Assembly (NCBI GenBank): GCA_040143965.1
Contig: JASJQH010006907.1
Location: 1-43,582, forward strand
DNA from: Basidiobolus ranarum
Taxonomy: Eukaryota
Length of the DNA stretch: 43,582 bases
Direction: 5' to 3'
Shown in pieces: positions 10,989 through 43,582 of the stretch. Each line of letters starts with the position of its first letter. Position 1 is the stretch's first letter. Under the pieces are notes generated by a model. That model was not told the origin of the DNA. It was given only the letters and a program-made list of their open reading frames with translations, and searched no databases. The position numbers were made by a program, and so were the translations under genes.

Positions 10989-13900
10989 CTAACGTTTCTC
11001 TTTTACAAATAGCTGAAGACATATAAACGAAAGGATAATAAAAATGCAGAACATCATCGAAAGCTTTACAACGTCTGACCAATAATTGGCCGCGTTAAAT
11101 CCAAACGTAGATAGAATGGTGGCTCCGGGGATGTCAATCTGTAGGCCATACTTTTTCTCAGTTAATTGAAGATATTTCATCTCATTGACAAGCATGGCTT
11201 CTAATGCGTAATTGAAAAATGACAGGTCCTTCAACCACCTCAAGTATGGTGGAATAGAATCCTTATTCAAAAGCAATCCACCGAATAACATACTAAAGAG
11301 CATCATAAGACTGCTCAATAGGTTGGCTACCGAGATTTCCGGGAATACAATCCCTAAGAAAAGTGAGATACTGGCAGCGGTCAAGTTGAATAAAACAAGA
11401 CCCACCAGAAATCTGCGGAAATGCTCAAATCCTGGTGCCAATCCACCCATGTTGTATATAATCACTCCTAGCAAAATCGGCGGGATAACACGTAATGGGA
11501 CAATATCAAACATGACCTTGGAGGCAAAATAAGTTATAGGGGAGTAATAGCCATTGGCACGTTCTCTTACAAACAAGACTCTCTCGCTAGCGAATACTTG
11601 TAACGAGGTAAGGCATCCAAATCCAAACAAAGCACACACGAAGAAAAAGACACCCATCCGATTTTGAAATCCAGCAATATCGTTGGTAACTTGATAGAAC
11701 AAGAGACCACATAACACAGCCAAGAAAACGCTGATCACATAATGCGTTAACATAAGGTACGGGTTTCTATACAGGTTTTTGAACGTACGATCAGACAAAA
11801 TCCGATATTGTGTATACCATGAGGAACGTCGATATGTCCCCATATTGGGTACTGGTGCGCCGTCGATTTGATTTGACCCGACTATTCTCTCAATCTCATC
11901 TACAACACCATGCGCCAAAACGCTACGTTTGTACTCTCTCACTAACATCAGTAAATGGCTGGACATTCCTTCGATTGTCTCGGAACTTCTGGAGGAAGTG
12001 GTGGAACTACGATTACCACCAGTCCAGGGACTTACTTCAGTTTGCCATGGGTTGTTGACTTCAGGCGGTGTCGAAATAATAGGAGGTAGATCATCGAAGG
12101 GATTAGTAGAGGATGTTCGATGAGGAGAATATAAAGAGTCTTCTTGCATAACACGAATAGAGCGCCTATGGTTGTTTTGAGAGGTATCTACTTCACCCGC
12201 ATTGTTGGAATTGGACAATCCAGGAATGAGCTCTTCGTCATCTTCAAAATCCTCTTCTGATGGTTTCACCGCATGCTTACTCAAGTCAACCACAAAATCA
12301 GCAATGTTAAAGCCGAGGGGACAAGGATGGCCGATACTCTCAAAATGGGAACGGACCTTAGAAGCCATGCCAGAGTAAATCATCCACCCATCAGCCAAGA
12401 GAACTAACTGATCAAACAAGGTGAAGATATTGCTACGTGGTTGATGAATGGTAAAGATCACTGTTCTGTTGTAGTTGCGAGCCAAGGTGACAAGGCATTC
12501 AATAACATTATACGCATTATAAGCATCCAAGCCAGAAGTAGGTTCATCAAGGAAAAGAATAGACGGGGATGTAACAAGTTCACATGCAATAGAGACACGA
12601 CGTTTTTCACCACCGGAAATACCACGTGAACTCGAATCTCCAATGAAGCTATCCTTAATTCCCAAAATACCTAACTCGGACATGGTTTGATGCACACGAT
12701 GCTTTTTAGCCTCCGACGACATGCTACGTGGGAGTCGCAATAGGGCAGAGTAAAGTATGGTTTCATATACCGTTAACGTAGGCATTAGCGTATCCTCTTG
12801 ATCAACATAGCCAACAACTCGCTTAAACTGAGAATCACTGATAGTGCTTCCGTTAACAAAAATATCACCAGTAACCAATCCAGATTTATTCTTACGAGCG
12901 AGAATATCCAAGAACGTTGTCTTTCCAGCGCCTGTTAAAAATTGAGTTTGATATGTATTAGGTACTAATTGACTGAAGACCGTTTCTTTTATAGTAAAAC
13001 TTACCAGAAGCACCCATGATGGCCATCACTTGACCAGGCTTTACGATGCCGTGCACATTATTTAAAACCTGCTTCTTTCCAACAACGTAATTCACCCCTC
13101 TAAACATCAATGTCGTAGGTGTGTGATTATCCATTAGTTTACCGGCTTCATCATCTGGATTGTACTGATCAAGAGGTAAATAATCGCTAGGGGCTTTCTT
13201 GTTCTTTCGGACAAGATAGATGCCACCTAAATCCTAACTAGTAAGCATATACGAAATGAAATAAATATCCAGCAACAATCGCATACCAGTACCAACTCCA
13301 AGGATGAACATTAACACAGAGACGATGGAAATTATCATGAGAGATGTATTCTTGGGCTTTTCAGGTCTCTGCATGAGAGTTTAGATGAATGATTTTGGTC
13401 AGAAGAGTAGGGTAAAGGGAGTGGAGACACCCACTTACAATGTATCCAGGGACTTGAGTGTAATGTAGGCATTCTCCAGAGTGGCAATTCAAAGTAATGT
13501 AAGAATCTCCAAAAACCGACAAGATCAAGTCGTTCATGGCAGGTTCTAACAAACACTATACTGAGCATGATGACTACAATTGTGAGATGCTGTTTGATTG
13601 GTTTACCTTCAAACTTACACCCATCTTCGGTGTTACATTTGAAAGAGGCAGGCCCCTCTATTTCCTCTTCCAAAAACTCAGAAATGTCTATATGAAGTAA
13701 CGAGTCATATATGGACTCAGTATAAACGTTCTTTCTTCCATATGCTTATCATATACATACCGATGGATCCTTCTTTGCCGCAAAGCATTTCATCGGCCAT
13801 GCACTTGCAACGAATGTTAGGGCAAGTGTAGTATGTGGCATTTCCGTTGTAACTCCTATCTAAAATTGGAGTGTTTTACGGGTTAATCAACGGAATAATG

Positions 13901-15769: not shown

Positions 15770-18700
15770 ATGGACAGTAGGTGACTTTAACAATACGTTA
15801 TAGAAGTATTGAATATTTCAAGCTCAACCGACTTCATATTTGTCAGGAAAACTCCAAAGAAAAGTTAAAACTCCAAAGTCCGAAAAAGAATCCCCTTCGA
15901 GTAAGTCAAATAAGCGAGCTCACTCTGATGAAGCCTCACCAAGTGCCAAGAAAACGCGTCATGATTTCGTGTGTATCCAACAGTACTTAATTTGCTCGAA
16001 TCAAGCTAAACTTTACTAACCATGTCATTCACGTTTCACTACGCGATCTTGTTATTTTATCAAGGTTGGAGATCTGAAGCATCTATTAAAGCAGTGTAAA
16101 GCGGTTTATCACGACATCAAGAAATACAAAGATGATAGGCACGATACACTTTTTATTACTAGCAACCTGCTTGGATCTTGTTGACTTATTCTTTATTTTC
16201 TATTTATTAGTGGAAGACACGTGTCAAAACTTTTTCATCACCTTCCTTCGCGCGAAGATTACCCAGATTACTTTGATGCCATCAGTAAACCTATCGCTCT
16301 AGACATGATCAAAGTGAGTTCTTTTCTTCAATCCTTTTATACTCATAAAGAGAGATGATTTACCAAAGCACTAGGACAAAATTGATCAAAAAGAATACAC
16401 AAGCTTGGAAGATTTCAAAGCAGACATAGAGTTGATGTTTGAAAATGCCAAACAATATAATACAAAAGGCTCACAGGTTTACAAAGACGCGGTTACACTT
16501 CAGGTAATTTTCCCGATGTTATTATTAATTTAGTTTGAGATTGTGGTTCAAATTTTTTATCCTTTGTAGAAAATTGCCTCCAAGGAGATAGCTAGTATTA
16601 AAGCGACCTTAAGTATAGAGTCCAATGAAAAAACTACACCGAAATTACCGAAAATAGTAATCAAAACGTCGAACCTTGTAATACCGGATTCTCATCGAAA
16701 GAAGCGGGTTAAAGAGGAAGAGGAGGAGGTAGTGGAAGAGGAAGAAGAGGAGGCGGAAGAGTTAGAAGAGGATTTGGATCATTTTAACGATCAAGGTATT
16801 TTTAATCTTTAGGATGTTCTATCGTGATTATCTACATTGTTCTCACATAGTCAAAGATAAATTCTTTGAAGCGGTGGCATCAGGAGATTCCAAAGTCGCC
16901 TTAAAGATCGCGAAATCGAAAGGATTTGATCCTAGTGGATTTCACGTAACTGACATATTTGGGGAGGCACTTGAGTGGGGGCCATTACATGCGGCTGCAT
17001 ATTATGGTTTAAAAGATGTTGTACCAGTCCTGATCGATAATGGTGCGGATATTGAACTTCGAGATAATGGATTTAAATCAACACCACTTGCATGGGCGGC
17101 CTTTGGAGGTTTGGATCAATTATATGTTTAATGTAAAATAGTGTTTGTTAAATCATATGCATCGTCAGGACACGATCAAGTGGCAAAGATGCTTGTCGAG
17201 GAGTATCATGCAGAAAAAGAGCCCGAAAACATCAATGGTCAGATACCGATACATCTCGTAGCTGATCCTGAAAATTCCAGGTGGTCATTTCTACTTCAAG
17301 TGAGCAAAGTTTACCTATGGTCACCGTTGGAACTATGTGCTAAGACTTTCTTTTTGAAGGAAACCGACGATAAACTTAAGGATGAAGAAGATGACAGTGA
17401 AGATCATACTCCGTTAATGGAGGAACTTCTCCGAACACTTGTTGAACATAAAGACCCAAGGTAAGAACGAAACCAGCAGTAATAGGTGATACGATATATC
17501 CTAACTATTTAATCTTGAATAGCGGCCGGTTCTGTGCAGATATGTTTATAGAACTTCCTTCTCGAGAGGAATATCCCGAATATTATGAGGTTACTGAAAA
17601 ACCCATGGCGTTTAGTATTATTCAGGTAGGTAATCATTATATGAAGTTGCTTATCGCTTATTAATATTGATTATCTGGCCTTAGCGTCGTATAAAAAAAG
17701 GCTACAATTCGTTCGAAGCATTTGACAGGGATGTTAGACTTGTCTTTGACAACGCGCTGTCATTCAACGAAAAGCGGTCACAGGTTTATAAAGACGCTAA
17801 AGTACTTTTGGTAAGCGAGAAATATATACGCAATATGCAAGAACCTCACTAATCACCCAATCAGAAATTATACAACGTAACTAAGAAAGATCTGAGTAAA
17901 CGCTCACAAACGGTTTGTTATATTTTTGAATAATTCTCGTACGTATATCATCTTGTTTAACTTTGTTGTGAATTTACTTAGTTAGAGGACACGAGGGATT
18001 CTCTCGAATACAATGGAGTTACTTATTGTTTAGGTTTGTTCGGCTAAATATTCTAGATGACACTCTCATATAGCATATCGTAACCTTCTATCGGTTTAGG
18101 TGACTTTGTCTATGTCGAAGTGGACTCATCAGAGCAAGATAACATTGCTATGATAGAAAAGCTATGGGTGGAGAAGTGAGTTATTTTCTTCATTCGTATG
18201 TATTATTAGAATTGTACCAACACTCTATGGTAAATGAACAGCGATGTAGAATACTTCAGTGGGCCTTGGTATTTCCGAGCTGATCAGGTAACTTTTAACT
18301 TTCCCACCGCAAGACTGCTCCTGTGCTCATATTATGTATATAGACCTTTCATCCGCCATCAAAGAAATTTTACGAAAACGAAGTATTCAAATCCAACAAC
18401 GTTGACGAGCATCCCTTGAAGAATGTAACCAGTAAATGTTACGTAATGTATATCAAAGACTATCTCAAAGGTAAACCATTCGCGTCTGATGACCAATACT
18501 TGATCTCTGATTAAAAGTGTTTGCTATTCAGGATATCCCAAAGACTTTGAAAAGGAAGATGTTTATGTGTGTGAATCTCGTTATTCGGATACTACCAAAA
18601 GCTTTTCTTCAATCAAAGATTGGAAAAAAACGCTAAATGTCGAAAACAAGAATTCAGTAGAGATTATTTCTTATCAGAAACCCCTGAAATTAAACAAAAT

Positions 18701-19890
18701 CAGTTCACCATTGTTCAATATGGATGGAGAATTGATTCGCAAATCTGAAGAAGTCGGCAAGGATGACACTAGTACCCTGAAGCTTAGAATTCCCAACAAG
18801 TTTACCAATACTTCTCCACGAACTAGCACCGTTGCGCATGGAACATCTCCAATATCTCCAATGAAAAGCCCGATTTCCAGTGAGGCGGGCGATGCCTCTA
18901 AAGATTCTTCCACCTCTCCAAGGGACTTGAGCATTGACAATGAGAACGACGATAATATAGATGTTGTTGGCATTTCCTCTAAATTAATATCAAATCCTTT
19001 GGATGACCAATCTGATTCCGAACAAGAAAACACTGTATCGTCTCCTCCACCCGCTTCAACCCCACATAAATCACCAGAAACTGATGACATTTCGCCTTCG
19101 ACATCTCAAAAACCAGTTACTTTTATGCCAAATGTAACCGCCAATAATTATTCATTGTCTGAAGACACCTCGAAATCTCAGCATTCTATTATGGCAGCTG
19201 CCCCAAGCACAGGCTCAACAGTATTGCCTAACAAAAGCTCACCCGCAAAACAGCCGGACACTTTATCAGAACGAACGTTCATCTCAGGATCCCTATCAAC
19301 TTCAACCGCGACAGCCATACCAGAGTCACTTCCGGGATCACAGGCATCACTGCAAAAGCCCTCTCAGGCCCCAGTGGTGCCCACTATGGTACAGCAGGTT
19401 GCTCCACCGGCTCCACCATCTCCTCCAGGTAATCAGAAGAAATAAGTTGAATTTCGTTATAAAACACTACCTGACTAATCCTATACATCTAGATATCCAA
19501 CTGTTGTCATGTATTGAACTCGAATCAGATGACCAATCGTTCTACCTCTGCCTTGACACAGCCACCGCTGCGCATAGTATATCCGTAGGATCTCAAGTTA
19601 GACATCTCGTAGTCAAGCCTAATATGATGAAGAATATAGTAAACCAACGAGTATTGGTATTTCTGTTTCAAAATGCCAGACGAGTTCAACCAACGGCCAA
19701 TCAATCCAAAAAGATAGCACCATCATCCAACCCAGCGAAACCAAACTCATATCTGGTCAATCTACAACCAGGGTTGAATTCTCTAGAAATATGGGCAACT
19801 ATTCCGTCACCACAAATGAACAATAATTCATCTTCCCCACCAGCACATATGCAACAATTCAATATTTTTGTTACGCGTATGGGTATTTAG
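15770..19890 (+). CDS. Polybromo/RSC1-2-4-like chromatin protein: Bromo-Ankyrin repeats-Bromo-BAH-low complexity-C-terminal beta domain
   Basis: Spliced product: BD1 (LPSREDYPDYFDAISKPIAL...NAKQYN...SQVYKDA), ankyrin repeats (WGPLHAAAYYG..VLIDNGAD; TPLAWAAFGGH), BD2 (LPSREEYPEYY...NALSFN..SQVYKDA), BAH (GDFVYV...WYFRADQTFH...FYENEVFKS...YVCESRY) and a C-terminal LQPGLNSLEIW...FNIFV domain. The start (ATGGACA micro-exon at 15770) is less certain. Confidence 0.88.
16139..16210 (+). other. GC-AG intron in bromodomain 1 of the polybromo-like gene
   Basis: Junction GATGATAG|gcacga...tattag|TGGAAGA restores KDDSGRHVSKLF. No in-frame GT is available, and the same position in BD2 carries a GT-AG intron (17461-17522). 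Confidence 0.8.
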
Positions 19891-20412: not shown

Positions 20413-21981
20413 CTAAACGCTCAGAATGGCCTCAGTCTTTGATTTAAGTTGCTCTTGATAAGGAGCAAGTGCTGGTTCAACACATTTAACTAAGAAGCTG
20501 TCAACTTGCTCAGGTGCACGGCCGATAAATGTAGAAGGATCTAAGAGTTTCTCCAAGTCTTGCCAGATGGGTTCGAAATATTTGGTGGACTTGACCCTTT
20601 CGATCAGATCATTGCTTCCACCTTCTACCTTGACTCTATGTGCGGCTTGGTGTGAGAGAACACGAATTTCTTCGTGACACACCTGTCTATCTCCACCTTT
20701 CTTGACCATTGCCATGATAATATTCTCGGTAGCCATGAATGGTAGTTCTTGATTGATACGTTGCTTGATAACAGCTGGATAAACAACCATACCATCGAAA
20801 ACGTTTTGAAGAATAGTAAGAAGAATATCAGCAGTTAAGTATGCCTCAGGGATACTGATACGACGAATGGCACTATCATCGAGGGTTCTTTCTAACCATT
20901 GAACACTTGAAGTTGCCAAAGCATCTTGTACCAAGATCATCAAATGTCTAGAAAGAGAGCAAATACGTTCACATCTCATAGGGTTTCTCTTGTATGCCAT
21001 TGCTGAAGAACCAATCTGATCCTTCTCGAAGGGCTCTTCAATCTCTTTCAAATTAGCCAACAGTCTAATATCAGTAGCAATCTTATGAGCGGTAGCACCG
21101 AAAGAAGAAAGAGGTCCTAGAACATCATTATCAACTTTACGAGAGTATGTTTGACCAGTAACAGCATAAGGAGTTGAAAATCCTGAAAGTTCGGTTACAA
21201 GCTGATCCAGTTCCTCTACTTTATCGTGATCACCATCGAATAAAGTCAAGAAAGAAGCCTGGGTACCGGTAGTTCCTTTGACGCCTCTGAATTGAAGATC
21301 ATCACGAGCACGAGTAAGGTTACGTAAATCCCAAAGTAATTCCTTTGTTAAAACGACGATTTAGTATAAAGAGAAATACATGGAATCATATAAATATATA
21401 TATACATACCTGAAGCCAGAGAGTAGCTCTCTTACCAACGGTGGTGAGTTGAGCAGGTTGGAAGTGAGTGAAGCCCAAGGTAGGAAGATCACGATATTCC
21501 TTGGCGAATTTGGCAAGTGAATCGATAACACAGGAAAGCTTGTTCAACAAAATGTCTAAACCGTCACGAAGATTTATAAGATCTCCGTTATCAGTTACAT
21601 AACAAGAGGTAGCACCAAGATGAATAATGGGAGCTGCTTTAGGACAGAGAAGACCGAAAGTATGAACGTGAGCCATGACATCGTGACGACGTTTCTTCTC
21701 CTCAGCAGCAGCCACTTCGTAATCAATATCGTACTAAAAAAATAGTAAGTAAGCTACTAAAAGGCAAAATATAATGAAATACCGTGTACCAAGTGCTGGC
21801 GCATCTCCTCTAAGGCTTCCTCGGAGATGTCCTTCAAGCCAAGTTGTCTTTCGGCAGTAGCAAGGTTGAGCCAGAGTTTACGCCAGTTGCTAAATCTCTT
21901 ATCATCGGAGAAGTTATAGGCCATCTCCTTGGAGGCATAACGAGAAGTCAGAGGACTTTGGTACTTGGCATGAGATTCCAT
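20413..21981 (-). CDS. ADE13: Adenylosuccinate lyase, 3 exons
   Basis: Exons 21981-21790, 21733-21410 and 21342-20413. Motifs [33 protein letters not shown] and the [11 protein letters not shown] fumarate-lyase signature. Confidence 0.97.
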
Positions 21982-27873: not shown

Positions 27874-28356
<483 letters not shown>

Positions 28357-30632: not shown

Positions 30633-33169
30633 ATGAGTAGCAAACACGCGCCAGGCACAATTGTTTGGGCAAAGATCAAAGGGTATCCTTGGTGGCCTGC
30701 TAAAGTACGTGTTTATAACATTAATATATCAATCTCCAACTTCTTGTTGAGAATACCTCCTAGTAACAAGAGTTGTTCAATAAACGCGATACTCGAGTTG
30801 GGATTTTATATATTTATATCATTACTACTATCTAGATCAAGAAGGAGGAGGAAGTCCCCGCCGCTGTCCTCAAACAAAAGCCTAGTAGACCTGTCCCTAT
30901 TATATCAGTAAAATTTTTCGGTACCAAAGATTAGTAAGTACTTTTCCTGCTTTCATAACTAATAGTTTTATATCTTGTTGACGCGTTTCTATTAATTTTG
31001 AAATAGTGGTTGGATTAGTTCAGATAACCTCAAGCCTTTTGAAGAACATCTCCAAGAATTCAATAAAGGTAGACGAGGTGTTCAATTTGATAGAGCGGTC
31101 AAAGAGGCCTCTGATCCTGATGCTCAGGCCTCCGCTTCGGAGGAGGAAATGAACGAAGTAGAAGAGGATGAGTTGGTTAGCGAGGAAGAGGAGCCTCCAA
31201 AAAAGACACCAAAGCGAGGTGGACGTAAGAAAGCTGAGCCTCGTAGAAAGAGTCGGAGTAAAGCTGACTCGGACGATGCTTCAGAAAGTGAGCCAGAGAA
31301 AGAAAAGAAAGTCAAAAAAACACCCAGTAGAAGAGCTTCTTCAGGAAGACGCTCATCAAGAATTAAGCAAGTGGAGGAGGATGAAGAAGAAGAGGAAGAG
31401 CCTGAACAGCGTCCTAATACTCGCAAGAGAAAATCTCCTCCCGTTGAAGAGTCTACGCCAAAAAGAAGAAGAACCTCACGTAAGGACAAGACAGCTGAAG
31501 AGCCAGTTGAGGCCAAGGAAGAGGAGCAGGAGCCTTCTACCCCACAACGTGCTAAACAAAAGTCCAAGCCTCGTTAGTTGAATTTTTATCTCACTTTGGT
31601 TGTGCTATGTTTTAATTCTGAGAGATATTTAGGGTCTCCTAGTGAAAAGCTCATGTATCTTCGTCATAAGTTGCAGAAATTGACCATGAAGGACGTCGTC
31701 GGGGTTGGTTTTCTGACTGTTAATAATTGTGGTATTATATGATTATTTATCTCTCAAACTGCATTTAGGATATGAACACAATAGATTCCCTTATGAAGGA
31801 GGTGGAGACTTTCGATATGAACCTTTCCCTCTTGAGAGTAAGTGCTAGAGATATGTTTGGTATTCAAGAGATGATCTAACTTGGATTTATATATATTTCT
31901 CAGGAAACAAAGATTGGCAAATTAATGAAGCGAGTCTCTCAGCTTGATTTAGACGATGACCCCTTTGATATTAGAGATAGAGCCTACACACTTACAAAGA
32001 AATGGAGATCACTACTCATTGAGGATGTTCTTTCAGACAAACAGCAAGCTAACGAAGATGAAAGTGAAAAGCCTGATGATGACGCTGATGCTGACACCAT
32101 TCCTATGGATGTTGATGTAGAAGAGTCTAAAATAGAAAATGACCAAGCGAAAGAAAATGACGATAGTGGCTCTGAAGCAGAGACAGAAATCGAACAGCAA
32201 CTCAGCTCTGGTAGTCCGGATGAAGACGAAGATAAAGAGCAAGCATCTGATATTGAAGGGGAAGTCATCCAAGATGTGCCTAAAAACACCGACACTGAGC
32301 ACGGAGTCGAAGTAGGCGAGAAGGAGGCTACTGCTGAAAAGATGGAATCTGTTGCTAAGCCTGAAGCCACTACTCAGTCTGCTGTCTCAGAGACCGATGA
32401 ATCTGTATCTAAATCAGATGTAATTAAGGATATTATACCTGAATCTGAGAGTAAGGAAGAATCCCAAGTTGCCGATGACAATACTGAATTACCCTCCAAT
32501 GGTAAAAGTGAAGAGCAAAGTAATGTTGACGTAGCTCAACCCGAACAAAACAACAATGACGAAGTAGTCACTCAAATGGAAGTAGAACCAAGTCTTGTAC
32601 AAGCCGATGTTAAGGATGAACCAAAGCAGTTAGAGAAAGCTGATTCTTCTGAGACAAAGAATCAAATGAAAGTAGAACCAAGTCCCGTACAAGCCGATGT
32701 TAAGGATGAACCAAAGCAGCTAGAGGAAGCTGATTCTTCGGAGGCAAAGACCCAAACTTCAGAGAATCAAGTGGAGTCCAACGAAGACTCTAAGCATCAT
32801 GTTGCAAATGGTGAGCTTGAGGATACTAAAGAACTTAATGAAACAGTATCTCTACAAGATCCTATATCCGAAAAAGACACAACCAAGGATCCAATCGAGG
32901 GTGAGCCAGAGAAACCAGAAAGTATTTCACATTCGGAACAGAAAGAGGCCTCTGAATCAAAATCTGAGGAAAATATACCAAAATTGGAAGATAGCACCCA
33001 AGTAGTGGAGGAAACAAAACTTGAGTCTTCAGAGGGTCAGGAGGCAACGGAAACCCAGGTTGAGCCTTCTGTGACTCATATTGTAGAAGAAACCCCCAAG
33101 TCTTCGGACGTCCATAATGAAGAACTCAAGGAGCTAGAGCCTAAAGAAAATGGACAAAAGACTGATTAA
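30633..33169 (+). CDS. PWWP-domain chromatin protein with TFIIS-N/IBD-like helical domain and long acidic tail (Pdp3/LEDGF-like), about 6 exons
   Basis: VWAKIKGYPWWPAK...VKFFGTKDYGW, then a basic/acidic linker, LMYLRHKLQK...LRETKIGKLMKRV...IRDRAYTLTKKWRSLL, and a long Glu/Asp-rich tail. Confidence 0.88.
32573..32752 (+). repeat. In-frame 90-bp (30-aa) tandem duplication in the PWWP acidic tail
   Basis: QMEVEPSLVQADVKDEPKQLEKADSSETKN / QMKVEPSPVQADVKDEPKQLEEADSSEAKT. The two DNA copies start at 32573 and 32663 and are nearly identical. Confidence 0.95.
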
Positions 33170-33948
33170 TCTAAGAGTTTGCTGACGATAATTTTATTTC
33201 TCGTGTCAATGTTAAATTTTGCTATTTCTATCACATCCTTCCTTTCCTTTTTCCCTAGTTAATTTGATGTATATGTGCTGAAAAGTAGATTTTCTACCCT
33301 TTACCATGTTGTTTTTAGTCTTTTCCTTGTTTACATTTTTTCTATGCTTAGCGAAGTATTGTAGCGTGAAGGTTGTGAGAAGATAGTCTCTGTTGACCTT
33401 TTCTGCTCACAGTTGCATCATATTCATGCTACCACTACTTTGTCTTTTATTTTCCGCTTTAGAAAACAAAACCAACGCATGGTGTTAAGCAAAATCTGAT
33501 TTCTCAAGCTTCTATTATTACTCTTTTTTAAAAAACGAACACATCGAAAAGTCAACCATGTGTACGATAATAATTAAATAAATTAACAAAAAAATAATTG
33601 GTCGATTTGGTAATACTGTTGAATCTGGTCAGATATTCGATGACATAGTATATTACACAACTTTAGCATATTTAAATTAGTAATTCCTATGCGTTATGTT
33701 TAGTGTCGATTTTTTTCATCTTAGTCACTATTGTTGGCAGAGACAGAGGCTGACTTTGCTCTTTGACGTGTTGGTGTCACGTTAATTATATTTTACACTT
33801 ACTGTCAAATCATACTTTTCAACATAAACGTACATTCCCTTCGAAGGCGTATTCATTCTGTAAAACTGTTTTAGATAATATAGCAAGAGAACAAGAGCCT
33901 TAACCCATTTAGCGAAGATTTGTGAACCGATTCACGGTATCTTTCAAA

Positions 33949-36900
33949 ATGCACAAGATAGATGCACCTAAACGCGCCTTTTACTTATAAGTATTTTAAA
34001 AGTATTTGTCAAGCGACAAATTTAGAGAAAAATTTACTTATTTCATCTTTCTTATTTTGTTCGGATTTATACAAATCATCAAAAATTCGTACTTGACATC
34101 GACATCAAGGGAAGAACTTTAAGGGTAGATATATTTCCGCTACATTATATGACCTTGAAGCATTTAGTAGAACCCACCACTATATTTCTCTATGATTATT
34201 TATCATTCTATTCTATTTTCCATTATTTGTAGGGCTTTACTGAGCTTCATATAATCCCAACTACAAATTCCTTGTCACACGTGCGCATCAATGCACGGCA
34301 TTGTGGTATCCTTTTGATTTCTTTTAGCATTTCACAACCTTTCCTTTTACAACGCGTAATATTTAAACTCCTTAACGCGTATCTCTGAGATATACATAAT
34401 GTCACGGTCAATGGAATTGCAACTTCTCACGAATACATCGATATTATCAAAAATTCACTGCTGCCTGAGGTCACAAAGGATAAAAACATATTCCAATATC
34501 ACGAATTGAAGCGAAGCTATCACACAGCATTATACGAGGCTGAGGAAGGGGAGCTGTTAATACATATTCCCGAAGTGATAGATATCGTACAGGTAAAGTT
34601 TACACATTATTTCTTTTACCTAAATTCAACCTTCTTTTGTCCTATATTTTCATTGTTTATTAAATCTACTAAATTGTAGTTCCAAGAAAATGAAGCACCA
34701 TTACTTGATGATTCTAACGAAGGTAAAGTTTCATTATTGCATGAAGTATCCAAAGTTGTGGATATATATACAGTGATCGCTAACGACTCCAAACCTTATG
34801 GTTTTGCTACAGCATACAACGCAATGTTCGAGGGACGAGTCATGTTCACCCCGCTGGTCATCCGTATAGACTTCGCAGTGGTAAACCCCAAGGCTGGCGT
34901 CAACTTCATACTACCTGATCCTCAAGTAAACCCTTATGTAAGTAAAAGCAATTCACTCCGTTAGTGCTTTAGAGGTTATAGCGTCTTAACAAAACTTTAA
35001 TATAGCGATTTCCGCACGTTTATACGTGTAATGAAACGTTTCCTGGCCAAGTGCGTCTTTGGTTGCCTTGTATCGACCGAATGCACGAACGCTGCACTTG
35101 GGAGATGGAGTATATTGTGGATCAAACGCTACAGGATTCCAGCGGTGATAACGTAACGGAAGAAGAAGAGGCTCTGGAGATGGTGGTAGTCAGTAGCGGT
35201 GAATTGATCGAACAGGTATTTTTTTCTGAATCTATCTAAAAAATATTGACTCCCAATGACACTTGTATCGTAATTAGACTTCTCATCCGATTGAGCCCAC
35301 TAAGAAAATATTCCATTACATCCTTGCAATACCATCACCAGCATTTTCTATATCTTTTGCTGCTGGTCCGTTTGAAGTTGTCAAGTTGAGCTCTTCTGAT
35401 GGTCAGGTAGAAAAGAGTTCAGAGGATGCTGGTGGTAAAAGTACTAGTGAGATCTTTATGAATACTGATGACAGTGAAGGAACCAGTGGAATGTTTGCAT
35501 TCTGCCTTCCAGGTTGGATCGATGAGACTGCGAACTCTTGTGAGTTTTTAAACAAGGTAACATAGCCTAGTCTTATGAAAAATATCAAAACCTTTTCTCA
35601 TTTGGATTTGTTTAGGCTTTGGAATTCTATGCTCAAGAACTCGGATCATATCCATATTCATCATTCAAGCTAGTGTTTGTCGAAGATGCGCCAGATATAA
35701 TGATGTACAGTGCTACTATGACTATAGCCAGGTATTTTATCACAATTGTGCGCCTAACTTCAAATAACCGTAGTATACTGATTCGAATGCTTATAATTTT
35801 AGTACGCACCTCTTGCACGGAGACGATATTATCGACCAAACGTACGAGACCCGAAGACACCTAAGCTTAGCACTAGCAAAGCAATGGTTCGGTATTCACG
35901 TGGTTCCAAAATATGGGTAAGTTAAATCCACTCATGGTTGATCCTTTGCGAAAACTAACATGCTTCCTTTTTGCATAACATTAGTGCTGATTTATGGTTG
36001 ACCGTTGGATTAGCTAATTATGCTACAAGCTTGCTCATTAAGCATTTGCACGGTAATAACGAATACAGGTTTCGAATGAAAAAGGTAACTACAGTTTCAA
36101 CTCTATATTTGCGATGTGGTGCTAACTTTTGATATTTTATGACAGGATATTGATAAAGTTTGCGAGCTGGATGTTGATCGCCCTCCTCTTTACAATGTCA
36201 ACCTTGCCTATCCCGTCGATCCAGATGACTATAACTTTATGCAGTTGAAAGCTCCCCTTGTGCTGTTTGTACTAGGGAAGAGAATGATGAAGGGTGGTCC
36301 CTCTCTTGGAATACACCGGGCTATTCCCAAGGTCCTTGTAGCTGCGATGAGTGGCGAGCTAGGAAGTGGCAATGCACTTAGTACAAATTGGTTTCTAAAA
36401 GTGTGCCGAAAAGTCAGTGGAGTGGATAATAAACCGTTTGCAGAGCAATGGATATATCCTTTTTGTGTATTTTAATTTTGGTTTTGAGATACGATCTGAA
36501 TTCTGCTTTACATTGCCATCTAATTTCTAAATATTTCCTTAACATATTAATACCTTTGGCAGCGGATGTCCGATATTTCATTTTACATATTCGTTTAATC
36601 GAAAGAAGATGGTAGTAGAGATCAACATGGAGCAAAGGTCTACTAACTCAAACGGATTAGCACACAAACATAGCGAACGTGCAATGTATCCAAGTACGAA
36701 TATGTTCACGGTAAGTTTATGCATGCTATTTGTATGCCCACGACGTATGTCGGTTGTTAAATTACAAATACACAGGGACACATGACTGCTCTCATTCGAG
36801 AAGCTGACGGAACTCCTTACGAACATGTGTTGGATATACAAGACTTGAACAAAAAGTATGAGGTGCAATTCAACACTAAGTATAAGCGTATCAGAAGGTT

Positions 36901-39900
36901 AACAAAGCGCTTCCAGCAGCGTCAGGCAGCAGCGGCCGCGGCCGAGGCTAGTGTTGGTGCTGAGGAGATGCCAGAGGCAGTTATGGATGACCTGGAAGAT
37001 GTTTTTGGGTATGGTATGGATGAGAAAGAAAAGGAAGAGTGGAGAGTTGTAGAATGGGGAGAAGTTGATGAAGAGAGTACCGCAAGGTAGAGTTGTTATA
37101 TTTTAAATAACCATTTGAAAGCAAACATTAATAATGGTAACTGATATAGTGGTACGTTTGAATGGATTCGACTTGATTCTGATCTTGAGTGGATTTGCGT
37201 TATGCAATTTGAACAACCTGATTACATGTGGGCTTGTCAACTGTTAAATGATCGTGATGTTGTGGCTCAGATCGAGGCAATTGAAGCTCTCTCGAATTGT
37301 CCATCACCTGCCACTTCTACGTCATTAATGAGAACTATGATGGACCCCAAGTGTTTCTACCGAATTCGTATGGAAGGCGCATTTGCACTCGCAAAATGTG
37401 CTATTCCACAGCTAGACTGGATTGGTTTACATCACCTTTTCAAAATATTTCAAAAAAGATACTGTTATGCTTCCACCACTTCCGATGGTGACGGCGAGAT
37501 TGCTATAGTTCCAAAGCCAAACAATTTTTCAGTGTTTACTGAGTACTTTGTTCAAAAGGCTATCGTTGCCGCTTTTTCGACTGTGAAAAATTCTAAAGGC
37601 CATACTCCGATCAAAATCAAACAGTTTCTTCTAGAGCTTCTTCGGTACAACGACAACACTGGGAACCACTTTTCTGACAACTATTATATTAGTGCGTTAA
37701 TCAACGCTCTAGGAAATGCGCTTATTCCTAACGAGAGGTCCAACCAAAGCGAACAAGAGGGTGAGAAAGAACTGTTTGCTGACGCCGTCCAGGAGATAGA
37801 ACGCTATCGAACACTGGATTATTTGGTTCCATCTTATCACAATACTGTGACTATAAGCGTACTGCAAGTAATGATGAAGCTTATGATGGCTAATCTTCTT
37901 GCCCCGAATTTGAAGCTGTTCTTAGGATATACCAGATATGGTAACTTTATGCGGGTACGACTAGTTGCGTTCGAAGCACTATTGCTTTTAGATGGTCTTC
38001 GTAATGGCTCGATTGGGCAGTATATTTTTCAAGTTATTGCTCTCGATCCTTGCCACTATGTCCGCTATTATTTAGCCAAGTGCTTATCTGAAATGTTAGG
38101 TGTTCATATTGCTCGTGCCAGCTCCACCGAACATGATACTACGGAAGAGATGGTTTTCGAGGAGGTAGGTCAGCCAAAAGTCATTCCAGAGAAGACCTCT
38201 GAAGAGGAATTTATTCATACTCCCGGCTTAGAAGCAATTCATAAAGAATTTTCGGGTAGAGAGGATCTTCAAGCACAAGTCTGGGAGATCTTGACATCTA
38301 ACCCTGAGCAGGACTATCGCGTGTTTCGTTATATGTTTCTTTTTTGTGAGTTGCTCTACAAGCCTATCGATACAATACCTAAATTGAAGATAAAGATGCC
38401 TGTAGTGGCACCCTCGGAGTCTCGAATTGACACGCCTTTAAGGACGTCTAGTAAAACTGCGGAGGCTAACAAGCCAACTGAAAAAGCAGATCCAGTCACA
38501 TCTATTCGAAAAGAGAGTACAAAGGCCAGCCATGACATCCCTATGATAAGTGCTCAGGAAGACGAAGATATTGAAATTGAAGCAGGAACTGTACCTTCCT
38601 CGACAAAACCAACTTCTACAACCACTAGCAAGGAGGACAAAAAAACCAAAGTTGTCAGCACCCCCAAAAATCGTAAAGAATCTAAAACATCGGAATCTCG
38701 TAAAGAGTCGCGTGACAAAGATTCAGAGAGACCGTACAAGAGTGAGCCGGTTGTGCCGGACGTTTTAGTTAAGATAGAGCCTGATGAAGTAAGTACATCC
38801 ACTCCTGTTGCAGCCACGACGCCTACCCATAAGGCTAAACTGCCATCGAGACAAACACCACAGCCTAATCTGACCATACCGGTACAAGATCAGCTAAGGC
38901 CGGAAGAGATGAAGGTTTGCAAACGGATCCTCCGAAAGATGATGGCTCATAAGTCTGCTTTTTACTTCCTTCAGCCTGTGGATCCAATTAGAGATGGGTG
39001 CCCTACATATTTTGATTTAATCAAGCATCCCATGGATCTGGGCACTGTTAAACTGAAGCTTGACGAGGGCAATTATCACAACCTGAAAGAGTTTGAGGAT
39101 GATGTGAGATTGATGCTGAATAACTGTTTTGTCTTTAACCCGGTCGGATCTTATGTTTACAATGAGGGCCAAGAGCTGGAAAGTGTTTTCGAGAAGGAAT
39201 GGAGTGAACAGAATGCGCAGAAACTCGTTGGTCGAGAGCCAGAGTTTAATATGACTATTGTGGAGTCTCCCGTCACCAAATCTAAACCTTTGCCATCGGA
39301 AAAATCAGATGTCGAGTCAGAGCCACCAAAGAATGAGGTCGAGAAATCCTCCAAGAATCTCACGCCTGAGCTTCACAAATGTAGAAGCATCTTGAAGAGG
39401 ATTGCACAACATGAATCTGCATTTGAGTTTTTAAGGCCTGTGGATCCTATCAAGCAAGGGATTCCTACGTATTTTGAAATGATCAAGAGTCCCATGGACC
39501 TTGGCACTGTCAATAAGAAATTGAAATCTGGCCAGTACCAAACAAAGGATGATTTCCGTGAAGATGTTGAGCTTATGCTTAACAACTGCTTTACCTTCAA
39601 CACTCCTGGTACTTTTGTGTACGACCAAGCAAAAAGTCTCAGTGAAGTATTTCAGCGAGAATGGGAGAATCAATTCGGAACCCGGACGGTATCTGACTCG
39701 GTGGAGCCTACTCATGCCCCAGTTAAAGTCGAGCCTATATCAGAGCCGAGTGTTCCTATCATACCTGACTCGTCTAGAAAACCAAAAATGGACATACCAG
39801 AGCCTGCTACTGTTGTGAAAATCGCAAAACCCTCTGTCGAGAAGGACCCGAAGGAAGTGACATCTATCGGATTCACCAAGCCGGCTCCAGCGATTGCAAC

Positions 39901-42024
39901 CCCGAGACCACCGTCACCGATGGTTCGAGCCCAGCCTCCTAACTCAAGCAGAGAAAGCAGTGGTATACCAACACCCAAGGCTGCTACTTCAGTAAAAAAC
40001 TCTCGAAAATCTTTGACACCCAAGCCATCTCAGAGTCCTGTACGCAGCAATGCTTCTCCAGTCACCAAAATTACTGGGAAAGCAACAAATGCCATGGATG
40101 ATGTTACCTATAAACGTTGCCAAAGAATACTCAAGAAGTTATGGTCGAACCCCTCCTCCGAACCGTTCCAATTGCCAGTTGACCCTATTGCTTTGAAGAT
40201 CCCAACCTATACGGATATCGTTAAAGAGCCTATGGATCTGAAGACAGTCAAAGAAAAATTAGACCGAGATGATTACATTTCTATCCGAGATTTTGAAAAA
40301 GATATTCGCCAGGTATTCTTCAATTGTTTCTTATTCAATCAGCCTGGTACTTGGGTATTTGAAGAAGGGAAGAAGATGGAGGCCTACTTCTACGAGCTTT
40401 TGGATCGCGATAAGCCTAGACGTCCCATATTATCTGAAGACAAGCAAAACTTATTAAAACTGATTCAGAAAATGACCAAAAGTAAGCATTCGTCGTTATT
40501 CCGAGAACCGGTTGATTGGGTGACATTACAGATTCCAGATTATCCGCGAATTATTCGACAGCCTATGGACCTACGAACCATAAAGGACAAGCTAGAGAAC
40601 GATCAATACCGAACCTGGGTAGATTTCGAAAGAGATATTCGTTTGATATTCAACAACTGCTTTACTTTCAATCCTTCTGGGACGTATGCTCATGAAGAAT
40701 GCCAGCACTTGGAGAACTATTTCTTTGAACGTTATCAGGAAATCAAGAGCACTTTGAAAGTCATTCCTGACGTTTCAAGGACTCCGTCTAGAGAACCTAG
40801 CATCAAGAGAGAGCCCGAGCCGGTGAGCATGACTCCCGAGCAATTGAAATTATGTGAGAAAATATACAAAAAAGTAAGCGGTAACAAAAATGCCGCTGCT
40901 TTCCTGGAACCGGTAAGTTATTCAATTCCTTTTTTTATATATCAGATTTATTAACAGACAACTTATCTCCAATGAAGGTTGATCCAGTTGCAATGGGCAT
41001 TCCGCACTACTTTGATGTAGTCCGTAATCCAATGGATTTCAGTACAGTTCATAAAAAGCTCAAGGCTGGAGAATATTCTATTCCAGGTGAGTTTGAGGCT
41101 GATGTGCGTCAGATATTCAAAAACTGTGCTACATTCAATGGCCCAGAACACTATTATACACAACAGGCGATGTTGCTCGATAAGATTTTGGACAAGGAAA
41201 TGCTCGCTTTCCAAAATCCGAAGTATTTAGGTAAACAAAATGGAGGCAGCGGTAGTAGAAAATCCAGCAAGCAGCCAAAAAAAGAAACTGTAGTACCCAT
41301 GGCTGCCCCGATTGCTTCTCCTATTCAAAGCTCAAGAGTGTCGGTTCCGTCTAGTCCTAAGACTCTGGATAGATCGGCACTTAAAGCATGTGAAAGTGTA
41401 CTGGCGCGAATCAAGTCACATCCCGCCTTCGAACCTTTCCGGGCTCCTGTGGATATTAAAGCCTTGGGTATTCCACATTACTACAAGGTTGTGAAACATC
41501 CCATGGATTTTGGCACGATCGAAAACAAACTTCGAAGTGGAAAATACCAGAGCATCGAACAATTCGTAGCCGACTCTCAATTAGTATTTGAGAATTGCTA
41601 CGCTTTTAACATTCCAGGTGATTCCGTCTATGTAATGGGACAGGAATTACAAAGATCATTTGAGAAAGCTTGTAAAAAGTACGGCTTACTAGACACTATT
41701 GAGAAGGCAACTCCTGAGCGGAGTGCAGTAAAGCGTGTACATCCTGAAGATTCTGAGCAATCCGAGGTACATATCTTACTAACCCATATTAATAATTATA
41801 TCGCATAAATATTGACAATATTTACCTAGCGCCATGGCACTCACGAGCGAAAGCGTAAGAAGGATAGAAAGGAGAAAAGAAAGCACAAGCACAGTAGTCA
41901 TCGGGAGGATGATGACAGGCCAGGCACTGAAGAGCACTTCTCCGATTCAGAGAATAGTCGTGCATCAGCATCACGAACCTCACCTCAGCCCCAAGTCCGT
42001 CTAAAGATCAAGTTAAAGCACTGA
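33949..42024 (+). CDS. TAF2: TFIID subunit 2 fused to six C-terminal bromodomains, about 17 exons, about 2,290 aa
   Basis: Aminopeptidase-like TAF2 core (HQKFVLDID, GFTEL, WLPCID, QWFG, LKAPLVL, QWIFGSGCP, IREADGTPYEH, EWIRLD, DRDVVAQIEAI, RYNDNTGNHFSDNYY). It continues in the same exon into bromodomains with F.xPVD...Y...PMD...NCxxFN, six in total. A Lys/His-rich tail ends VRLKIKLKH*. Confidence 0.93.
33987..34072 (+). other. TAF2 intron 1: probable AT-AC intron with U2-like donor ATAAGT
   Basis: TTTTACTT|ataagtat...gatttatac|AAATCATCAAAAA gives MHKIDAPKRAFYL-NHQKF. There is no GT between ATG 33949 and the in-frame TAA. Confidence 0.65.
34306..34389 (+). other. U12-type (minor spliceosome) GT-AG intron in TAF2
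   Basis: Donor GTATCCTTT, branch TCCTTAAC at 34369-34376, 13 nt to the end of the acceptor. Splicing restores RINARHC-DIHNVTVNG. Confidence 0.93.
36454..36553 (+). other. U12-type (minor spliceosome) AT-AC intron in TAF2
   Basis: Donor ATATCCTTT, branch TTCCTTAAC at 36535-36543, acceptor TAC. Splicing restores the conserved EQWI-FGSGCP. Confidence 0.95.
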
Positions 42025-43582
42025 ATCTAAGGGATTCGCGCGCTTCTATACTCTATCCTCAGCCACACCTTTTGAGCTGTTGTGGTTTTGGTTTTTTTGG
42101 CATGCAATAGGAAGAAGTTATTTGTTATTGAATTAAGTGTTGAAAAAGAACTTGATTCGTTTTCTTTTCAGCGATATGTTTTTGTGTTTATCTTTGACAA
42201 CGCGCTCTTGTGCTGGGATATTTTAACATCAATCTTGTATTGCTCTCCCCCATTCCAAAAATGCTTACATAGCAACTACCTTCTGTAAATAGACAAAAAC
42301 TTGGTCAAATTGCAAATTAAAAGGCTAGACATTGATTTAGCACTAACAAGATTCAGCATATTATTCAATAACTAGACAAAGGGTTTATAATGTTGGATTC
42401 TATGGCTTGTATTGAGGATCTGGTTCATCCAGCTTTTAATTTGAATCCAGTGAACCTGAGAATGATCTATTGGCCAGGAAGAACCAAACATGTCATTTGG
42501 TTGTGGATGTGAATTAAAATTAAATATTAAAGCCTGCTCGAATGAATGTTACGAATACGGTGTTGGACTCAACCGTGTATCGATACAGGTCTATCTAGTA
42601 GAATTAATGCTCTGAGCGGAAATGTGCTAAGAAATCCATACTTGGAGGGATCAGTGAATGTTAGTATCTCCACCTGCGAGCAAACATCCAATACGGGTTT
42701 AGCCATCTCAACATTGGGTACCAGCAGCTGTTCAATCAATTTCGGAGTAATCATACTAATATTAAGTACTGCTGAAAATCAAGGTAGCCAGACCTTTGCG
42801 TTAGGTAGATTAGTTATACTGCAAGTAGGGCGAGGAAAGGAGCAGTACAAGGCCGTACGAGTGACTGGGTAATCAATAGAACAGAGGGGCTGAGAAGGAA
42901 TCTAGGATTTCCTCGAAGAACGGTGGTGGTTTTATAGGAGCAGATGTGCTAATACAATGCAGTTGAACGTGCTCTCTAAATACTAGAGTTTAGAGATGAT
43001 TGTCTAATGTACCCTCTTCGGGGATAACTCTGATGCTTGCATTCGACATAAATTTACATAAACAATGAGATTGTCCAACACGACTCCAGTACATTTATTA
43101 CTCCGCTCCATCAGTTGTTAATGTGTTGTTGCGCTAAACCCTAAGCCCTAAACTCAGATCACATTTCCTTGCCAAGATCCGATGACTTGAATCAATTAAC
43201 CCGATTGTTACATTGATGTTATTTTGGAAATTAAGGCGACTGTGGGAGACGTTTTCCGGATCTCCACTAGTTATTCATTTTCCAGTCATTTGAAATTAAG
43301 ATTGAACTCCAGCTGGAACGAGCTCTGTGAATAAATAATCAGATGGTGCTATCCTGAGGCGACTTGCCCATCTCCTGCGCGGAAAAGAGGCCAGCCAGTA
43401 ATTCTGAACAAACCCGCATGACCAGCCGCGTCCTCAACAATCCTAAAATTTGGATTCGCCCCACCCGTACCACCTTCCAGATTCCATTTCACCGTGGCAT
43501 GGTGATCCACGATTACTAGCAATTCCGACTTCAGGGAGCCGAGTTTCAGGCTTCCATACCGTACAAAGTTGAATTTGAGGAT

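Follow-up and report, generated by a model that had tools for sequence, protein, structure and literature searches.

Within the general transcription factor TFIID, TAF2 is the large subunit of lobe C; it is placed at the promoter beside the +1 nucleosome. Acetylation is read by TFIID through the double bromodomain of TAF1 in animals and through a separate factor, Bdf1, in budding yeast, where Bdf1 gives TFIID its acetyl-H4 reading. We analysed a 43,582-nucleotide stretch of Basidiobolus ranarum DNA (NCBI GenBank assembly GCA_040143965.1, contig JASJQH010006907.1, positions 1 to 43,582 of the forward strand), hereafter called the window. A gene on the + strand at positions 33949 to 42024 corresponds to TAF2 with a tail bearing six bromodomains (BD1 to BD6). 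We put the probability that both this identity and this architecture are correct at about 90%.

Bromodomains on fungal TAF2 have been described by Antonova, Boeren, Timmers and Snel (2019, Genes Dev 33:888, PMC6672047). According to that paper, as far as its main text goes, basidiomycota, mucoromycota and blastocladiomycota have one to six of them, with six in Mucor circinelloides, four in Mortierellomycetes and none in Phycomyces. They were proposed to compensate for missing TAF1 bromodomains, and their 'dynamic gain and loss' was stressed. Basidiobolus, Zoopagomycota and entomophthoralean fungi do not occur in the main text of the paper. A TAF2 orthologue was also mentioned in passing as a bromodomain match in a Cryptococcus paper.

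The Basidiobolus (Zoopagomycota) gene belongs to the same family as these fungal TAF2 and has the same architecture; it is a further case of a published, widespread organisation typical of non-ascomycete fungi. The initial annotation of the window, made from the letters alone, had suspected that the fusion itself might not be new, and this suspicion was justified by both the publication and the survey described below: the fusion is not special to Basidiobolus. The same annotation saw in the six-bromodomain TAF2 a distinct and uncharacterised solution. Novelty has to be given up, as TAF2 with six bromodomains was already in print (PMC6672047, main text) and occurs in several Mucorales. Its being uncharacterised holds for experiment, since the full-text literature searched yielded no biochemical work on the bromodomains of fungal TAF2, most subscription journals lying outside the coverage of that search; it does not hold for the architecture. 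As a discovery, an ordinary housekeeping gene with a known and common architecture has small weight. What is new here is the corrected model of the gene, the recognition of two introns of U12 type and evidence for an ancestral array.

The six bromodomains and their closest relatives

The best database match of the locus is K7432_001434 of Basidiobolus ranarum (P0001, 1522 residues), a 'hypothetical protein' that is 100% identical. Six Bromodomain (PF00439) stretches were found by Pfam in P0001, above the curated cut-off (E 6.9e-140). The profile matches are located at 38885 to 39214 (BD1), 39347 to 39676 (BD2), 40085 to 40414 (BD3), 40418 to 40747 (BD4), 40820 to 41214 (BD5) and 41356 to 41685 (BD6). 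They thus cover 38885 to 41685, very close to the 38890 to 41690 at which six bromodomains had been initially annotated. BD3 abuts BD4, with 1-3 residues between them; the other linkers measure 26-182 residues, and Ser, Thr, Pro and charged residues make up 54-81% of linker sequence. BD5 is interrupted by intron 15 and consists of 40820-40912 and 40978-41214.

In bromodomains, acetyl-lysine is anchored by an Asn of the BC loop and a Tyr of the ZA loop. The PVD motif, the ZA-loop Tyr, the PMD motif and the NCxxFN motif are kept in six of six units, whose pairwise identities range from 26 to 50%; the initial description of conserved pockets in well-diverged units is borne out. At the DNA level, repeats are restricted to stretches of 23-39 nt that coincide with the conserved motifs and are 62-87% identical. 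Among 82 TAF2 bromodomains from 20 species, the pocket Tyr is kept in all and the Asn in 81, and the Tyr and Asn of BD4 align onto those of BRD4. An AlphaFold2 model of BD3-BD4, calculated from a 15-row alignment, had a predicted local distance difference test score (pLDDT) of 89.6 and a predicted template modelling score (pTM) of 0.59. Each half of this model superposes on solved domains of BRDT, BRD2 and Bdf1 with root-mean-square deviations (rmsd) of 1.2-2.0 Å. In the model, BD3 and BD4, the two units folded, have the canonical bromodomain fold, a left-handed four-helix bundle with its ZA and BC loops.

The bromodomains are encoded together with TAF2 sequence. On the + strand, the frame 37145 to 40954 is open for 1269 codons and contains TPR_TAF2_C as well as four complete Bromodomain stretches (Pfam E 8.6e-95), so that the join is not an artefact of gene modelling, as had been argued initially. 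The TAF2-like TPR repeats (PF25577) match at 37220 to 38149 (Pfam E 8.5e-64, 216 bits), that is, residues 26-335 of the frame starting at 37145 against profile positions 1-308 of 363. Two more Bromodomain stretches are found in the next frame, 40885 to 41808 (Pfam E 1e-41). Exon 15 (37150 to 40912, 3763 nt) codes for the C-terminal TPR domain, a 182-residue linker, the whole of BD1-BD4 and BD5 up to its residue 31. The TAF2 core and BD1 to BD5 had been placed within one exon of about this extent. The single exon is indeed there; from the core it holds only the C-terminal TPR part, and BD5 is cut after its 31st residue, while the aminopeptidase-like and Ig-like parts of TAF2 are spread over 14 exons upstream of it. 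The rest of BD5 and BD6 do follow one GT-AG intron, as had been stated. This intron 15 (40913 to 40977, GTAAGT...AAG, 65 nt, phase 0) falls between the P and the V of the PVD motif; exon 15 ends at 40912 and coding resumes at 40978, a junction also used by P0001.

The last intron (41767 to 41829) is likewise present in P0001. The last exon, 41830 to 42024, encodes a Lys/Arg-rich C-terminal tail and the stop codon; after BD6 the protein continues for 92 residues, 26% of which are Lys or Arg. The Lys/Arg-rich segment coded by 41830-42021 might serve for nuclear localisation or for the binding of nucleic acids. Within the bromodomain region, none of eight opposite-strand or off-frame open reading frames has a Pfam match at E 0.01, and a search of 33500-42500 against Rfam gave no match at the gathering score.

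The closest solved relatives of BD1, BD3, BD4 and BD6 belong to the BET/Bdf1 proteins (BRD2/3/4/T; Candida Bdf1, 5n13 and 8r6l), with E values from 1e-16 to 4e-29. The best single domains were Candida Bdf1 BD2, BRD2, BRD4 and BRDT; for BD1 it was Candida glabrata Bdf1 BD2 (8r6l, E 3.9e-29). However, BET proteins have two bromodomains and an ET domain, whereas P0001 has six units attached to TAF2 and neither an ET nor a BET family among its Pfam matches. The WPF shelf is the feature that defines BET bromodomains. Its Trp is found in 0 of 6 Basidiobolus units, where the shelf positions read AFYF, AFEF, SEPF, SSLF, AAAF and FEPF. Bdf1, moreover, is a separate factor, whereas the Basidiobolus bromodomains are covalently part of TAF2. 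As judged from their residues, the six units would be BET-like readers in a protein that is not a BET protein.

The double bromodomain of metazoan TAF1 (human TAFII250; PDB 1eqf, 3uv5) is likewise a reader built into TFIID, to which BD6 matches with an E value of 3.6e-21. In metazoans, the reader consists of two units on TAF1; in Basidiobolus, it would consist of six units on TAF2. The TAF1 tandem was also overlaid on the model of the abutting BD3-BD4 pair. The overlay covers 227-237 columns and is loose (TMq 0.52-0.56, rmsd 6.1-6.6 Å), and with the pTM of the model given above, a rigid TAF1-like BD3-BD4 module was not established. Polybromo-1 (PBRM1), a subunit of the chromatin remodeller PBAF, also has six bromodomains on one polypeptide and is the top whole-chain match of BD4 and BD6, because several PBRM1 units match. 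However, PBRM1 lacks a TAF2 body and carries BAH and HMG domains, and taken singly its units are poorer matches than BET domains. Outside fungi, Plasmodium PF3D7_0724700 is tabled as the essential bromodomain protein 'PfBDP6/TAF2' (PMC9010790, tabulated entry). The joining of TAF2 and bromodomains therefore recurs in a distant lineage; in apicomplexans it is probably an independent fusion.

How might such a tail act? The conserved TAF2 body, composed of aminopeptidase-M1-like, Ig-like and TPR/HEAT-like parts, is followed by a long, low-complexity, charged and Ser-Pro-rich tail that bears the six bromodomains and terminates in the Lys/Arg-rich end. This tail would be a flexible multivalent reader holding promoter-bound TFIID on the hyperacetylated H3 and H4 tails of the +1 nucleosome. 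By analogy with the known readers of TFIID, we lean towards such a multivalent tethering of TFIID to the acetylated +1 nucleosome by TAF2. The hexavalent acetyl reader imagined by the initial annotation is in this respect reasonable, and the same proposal is made in PMC6672047, so far as its main text goes. Instead, the bromodomains may read non-histone acetyl-lysines, carried by transcription factors, other TAFs or subunits of SAGA or NuA4, or the tail may serve as a scaffold or form condensates without tethering a nucleosome. Long disordered charged linkers and a Lys/Arg-rich end are typical of scaffolding tails, and without the Trp of the WPF shelf the specificity of the units may differ from that of BET domains. 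Against this stands an argument that is not direct: the pockets have the residues of histone readers, BET/Bdf1 and TAF1 as the nearest relatives are histone readers too, and TAF2 is located at the promoter next to the +1 nucleosome. We consider a non-histone or scaffolding role unlikely, though it is the most serious competitor of the nucleosome tether. Acetylation would be read through TAF2, and not through TAF1 or Bdf1, in most non-ascomycete fungi, and standard yeast models cannot reveal how.

Gene model, minor-spliceosome introns and second copy

The TAF2 gene, as modelled, comprises 17 exons and 16 introns. Its coding sequence of 6915 nt has no internal stop, encodes 2304 residues and ends with the stop codon at 42022-42024. 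Compared by blastp with 11 full-length fungal TAF2, the model gave with each of them one collinear alignment at 35-44% identity. For instance, its residues 1-1897 align to 1-2003 of Dissophora TAF2 (40% identity) and its residues 161-2217 to 43-2131 of Apophysomyces TAF2 (41% identity). Upstream of the region encoding P0001, tblastn located exons with homology to fungal TAF2 over its N-terminal two thirds, all on the strand of P0001 and in the right order. Exons 1-12 (33949 to 36453) encode the aminopeptidase-M1-like part at the N-terminus, and PF01433 is carried by the public model of this region, K7432_001433 (P0141). The TAF2 Ig-like domain lies within 36554 to 37327, whose coding sequence comprises exon 13, exon 14 and the opening 59 codons of exon 15. 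The exon at 36776-37084 matches the Ig-like third domain of TAF2, PF25316, with 38.1 bits for a cut-off of 27 (E 2.4e-9).

Splice sites leaving the frame open were enumerated for each junction. Most junctions yielded clean GT-AG introns and three differed. Intron 1 (33987 to 34072) has AT-AC ends with a 5' end resembling the major type (ATAAGT...AC). Its join is the sole one, among 50 enumerated for the first exon, that is collinear with the homologues, and it is also found in P0141; the other candidates were dropped since they gave an N-terminus that is not collinear. Intron 3 (34306 to 34389) is of the U12-type GT-AG subtype, with the 5' end GTATCCTT and the branch site TCCTTAAC 12 nt before the 3' AG, and its junction too is present in P0141. 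Intron 12 (36454 to 36553) is a U12-type AT-AC intron, with the 5' end ATATCCTT and the branch site TTCCTTAAC 10 nt before the 3' AC. Once it is spliced, a conserved block aligns without gaps to eight of nine homologues; in the ninth, P0127, the motif search for the block around intron 12 gave no match. Canonical GT-AG introns do not preserve the frame here; the one GT-AG candidate for the junction 36457 to 36555 removes the conserved block, and the U12 AT-AC intron was preferred.

U12-type introns are recognised by the consensus motifs of their 5' end and branch site. We searched the window on both strands for the corresponding pattern, namely a 5' [A/G]TATCCTT together with the branch site TCCTTAAC at a distance of 10-15 nt from the 3' end. 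Exactly two matches were obtained in the 43.6 kb, and these are introns 3 and 12. By these signatures, 34306-34389 and 36454-36553 are U12-type introns, of the GT-AG and the AT-AC subtype respectively, and both lie in the TAF2 gene. Basidiobolus is reported to be the genus with the highest minor-intron density among fungi (Larue et al., PMC10639083). Intron 5 (in the interval 34723-34812) has two possible acceptors. The homologues favour neither of them; our model uses 34773, and the public one lacks 13 residues at this place, probably from use of a later acceptor.

A second TAF2 copy is present on another B. ranarum contig (14235 bp) as K7432_008112 (P0002), a partial model that ends after BD2. 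BLASTP gives it 87% identity with the query, and tblastn 86.1% with the window; it may represent a paralogue, a homeologue or else a divergent allele. Between the TAF2 model and P0002, identity reaches 93.7% in the TAF2 part and 91.8% in both BD1 and BD2. Among the linkers it amounts to 69.4% before BD1, 97.7% between BD1 and BD2 and 65.3% after BD2. This distribution fits constraint acting on the domains, though unevenly. With such a copy at hand, the locus at 33949-42024 might be a redundant, decaying paralogue and the second copy perhaps the working gene, the more so as three non-canonical introns could pass for lesions. However, the frame of 6915 nt is free of stops and six pockets are intact. 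The non-canonical introns have exact U12 consensus motifs in a genus that is rich in minor introns (PMC10639083), and the domains are more conserved between the copies than two of the three linkers. A decaying locus is therefore quite improbable, and we retain a functional TAF2 gene.

In the public annotation this TAF2 gene is cut in two. K7432_001434 (P0001) corresponds to the last 1522 residues of our model and starts at an internal Met at 37328. Its profile match opens 39 positions into TPR_TAF2_C, and the TAF2 body is missing from it. The adjacent upstream model on the same contig, K7432_001433 (P0141, 560 residues, 100% identical, PF01433 in the precomputed Pfam data), shares its N-terminus and first three introns with the TAF2 model. 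Over model residues 1-568 the two are 97.5% identical, with one 13-residue gap at intron 5. The tail of P0141 reads into intron 12 and meets an in-frame stop there. About 260 codons (36554-37327) are missing from both public models. The cut thus lies at the AT-AC intron 36454-36553, which went unrecognised.

Taken at face value, the public models would represent two independent neighbouring genes, a short TAF2 (K7432_001433) and a separate six-bromodomain protein (K7432_001434), as the first closes at an in-frame stop and the second opens at an ATG. Nevertheless, the stop of P0141 sits within a perfect U12 AT-AC signature, and removal of the intron restores the gapless conserved block in eight of nine homologues. 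The segment 36554-37327, outside all public models, codes for the TAF2 Ig-like domain, P0001 is truncated 39 positions into the TPR_TAF2_C profile, and the model of the second copy, which runs from the window-equivalent of 36782 onward, crosses the supposed boundary through the 36554-37327 gap. Finally, TAF2 body and bromodomains reside in one protein in 113 of the 120 relatives listed (see below). Two separate genes are on these grounds very improbable, and a single TAF2 gene is preferred. The split of TAF2 in the public record explains why its C-terminal piece is called no more than 'Bromo domain-containing protein'. The record of B. ranarum names neither piece properly, the cause being a minor-spliceosome AT-AC intron missed by gene finders. 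The same error probably affects other genes of the minor-intron-rich Basidiobolus.

Distribution and age of the array

The frequency of the architecture was estimated from the best 120 of 203 relatives with E <= 0.001, in which bromodomain units were counted with our own hidden Markov model (HMM). Both PF25577 and PF00439 are found in 113 of these 120 (precomputed Pfam), the other seven being bromodomain-only fragments. Most of the 120 listed have three units (n=81) or four (n=24); one has a single unit, three have two, seven have five, three have six and one has seven. As the TAF2 model exceeds the length limit of the first search, an extra search was made among longer proteins, and 14 of its 20 matches were TAF2. 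Four of these 14 have three units, three have four, one has five and six have six. All six-unit longer models come from Mucorales, namely Radiomyces, Mucor circinelloides (P0122), Mucor velutinosus, Absidia repens and two Cunninghamella, and the count of six published for M. circinelloides (PMC6672047) is confirmed here. Six units also occur in shorter models of Apophysomyces and of the chytrid Clydaea. In 19 of 20 proteins examined by both means, Pfam and our HMM agreed on the number of units; for P0108, Pfam counted six and the HMM seven. Counting bromodomains over fungal TAF2 orthologues, as the initial annotation had advised, thus shows that six units are not unique: at least six were found in 10 of the 134 proteins surveyed. 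By group, the count is three in basidiomycetes, four in Mortierellales and five in spizellomycete chytrids. In Mucorales six is probably the rule, since several four-unit models of this order are flagged as partial.

Some records of relatives are oddly named or look like fusions of gene models (P0124, P0131, P0132, P0133, P0134). One TAF2 of Mucor velutinosus is misnamed 'erg10, acetyl-CoA C-acetyltransferase'. Long TAF2 records resembling gene-model fusions include those of Coemansia, with C2H2 zinc fingers, of Tilletia, with a peptidase M16, and of Collybiopsis (3983 residues), with chaperonin and PIP5K families.

The relationships of the units were studied in a careful IQ-TREE tree of 77 TAF2 bromodomains from 19 species, from which five rows of Clydaea had been removed because of their long branches. 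Support is given as ultrafast bootstrap (UFBoot) / Shimodaira-Hasegawa-like approximate likelihood ratio test (SH-aLRT). BD3 groups with Mucorales BD3 (98/85) and BD4 with Mucorales BD4 (95/81). BD6 groups with Apophysomyces BD6, Hesseltinella BD5 and Mortierellales BD4 (99/95). The orthology is weaker for BD5, which groups with Apophysomyces BD5, Mortierellales BD3 and basidiomycete BD3 (87/95). No sister pair is formed among the Basidiobolus units. In a quick tree of all 82 units, each Basidiobolus unit groups with the same-numbered Apophysomyces unit, with weaker support.

Given this position-by-position orthology with Mucorales, the array, as read from the tree, is inherited from an ancestor shared with Mucoromycota, with at least four units, and is not a recent expansion. 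Six similar units in a row and the 'dynamic gain and loss' of Antonova et al. (PMC6672047, main text) might suggest that a single bromodomain was recently amplified in tandem in the Basidiobolus lineage alone. This is scarcely credible, because the units are only 26-50% identical, no DNA repeat among them exceeds 39 nt, and in the careful tree the Basidiobolus units never pair with each other, whereas four of them have as partner the unit of the same position in other phyla. For the ancestral array that we prefer, the smaller arrays elsewhere look like losses, with Mortierellales appearing to keep units 1, 2, 5 and 6. In contrast to the 'dynamic gain and loss' stressed in PMC6672047, so far as its main text goes, the tree points to a stable array of position-orthologous units, comprising at least BD3-BD6, followed by losses. 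Unit orthology in this way recasts the published picture as an ancient multi-unit array with later losses.

We tentatively extend this reading. The six bromodomains could be anciently separated, individually conserved readers, at least four of which would have kept position and identity since before the split between Basidiobolus and Mucoromycota. TFIID of early fungi would then have been a combinatorial hexavalent reader in which each unit had its own mark or partner. The TAF2 with three, four and zero units in basidiomycetes, Mortierellales and ascomycetes would result from stepwise simplification. We regard this extension as possible and somewhat doubtful.

Several observations weigh against parts of the interpretation given here. 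The public annotation has two genes at the TAF2 locus. The gene model was built from sequence alone, and an isoform ending before the bromodomains may exist. The BD1-BD2 linker, 97.7% identical between the two copies, makes the contrast between linkers and domains uneven. BD1 and BD2 fall in a polytomy without support in the careful tree, so that an ancestral array is backed for four units, not six, and this tree was computed from 110 columns only. Lastly, the tethering to histones is wholly an argument from analogy.

Neighbouring genes

Elsewhere in the window, the open frames at 31880-33169 (+ strand, 429 residues, just upstream of TAF2) and 18504-19890 (+ strand, 313 and 250 residues) have no Pfam match at E 0.001. 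Three neighbour genes were recognised, all of them of an ordinary kind. An ABC-2/ABCG-type transporter is encoded at 10992-13025 and an adenylosuccinate lyase at 20416-21360, both on the - strand. Polyubiquitin is encoded on the + strand at 27874-28353, with two ubiquitin units in the frame scanned.

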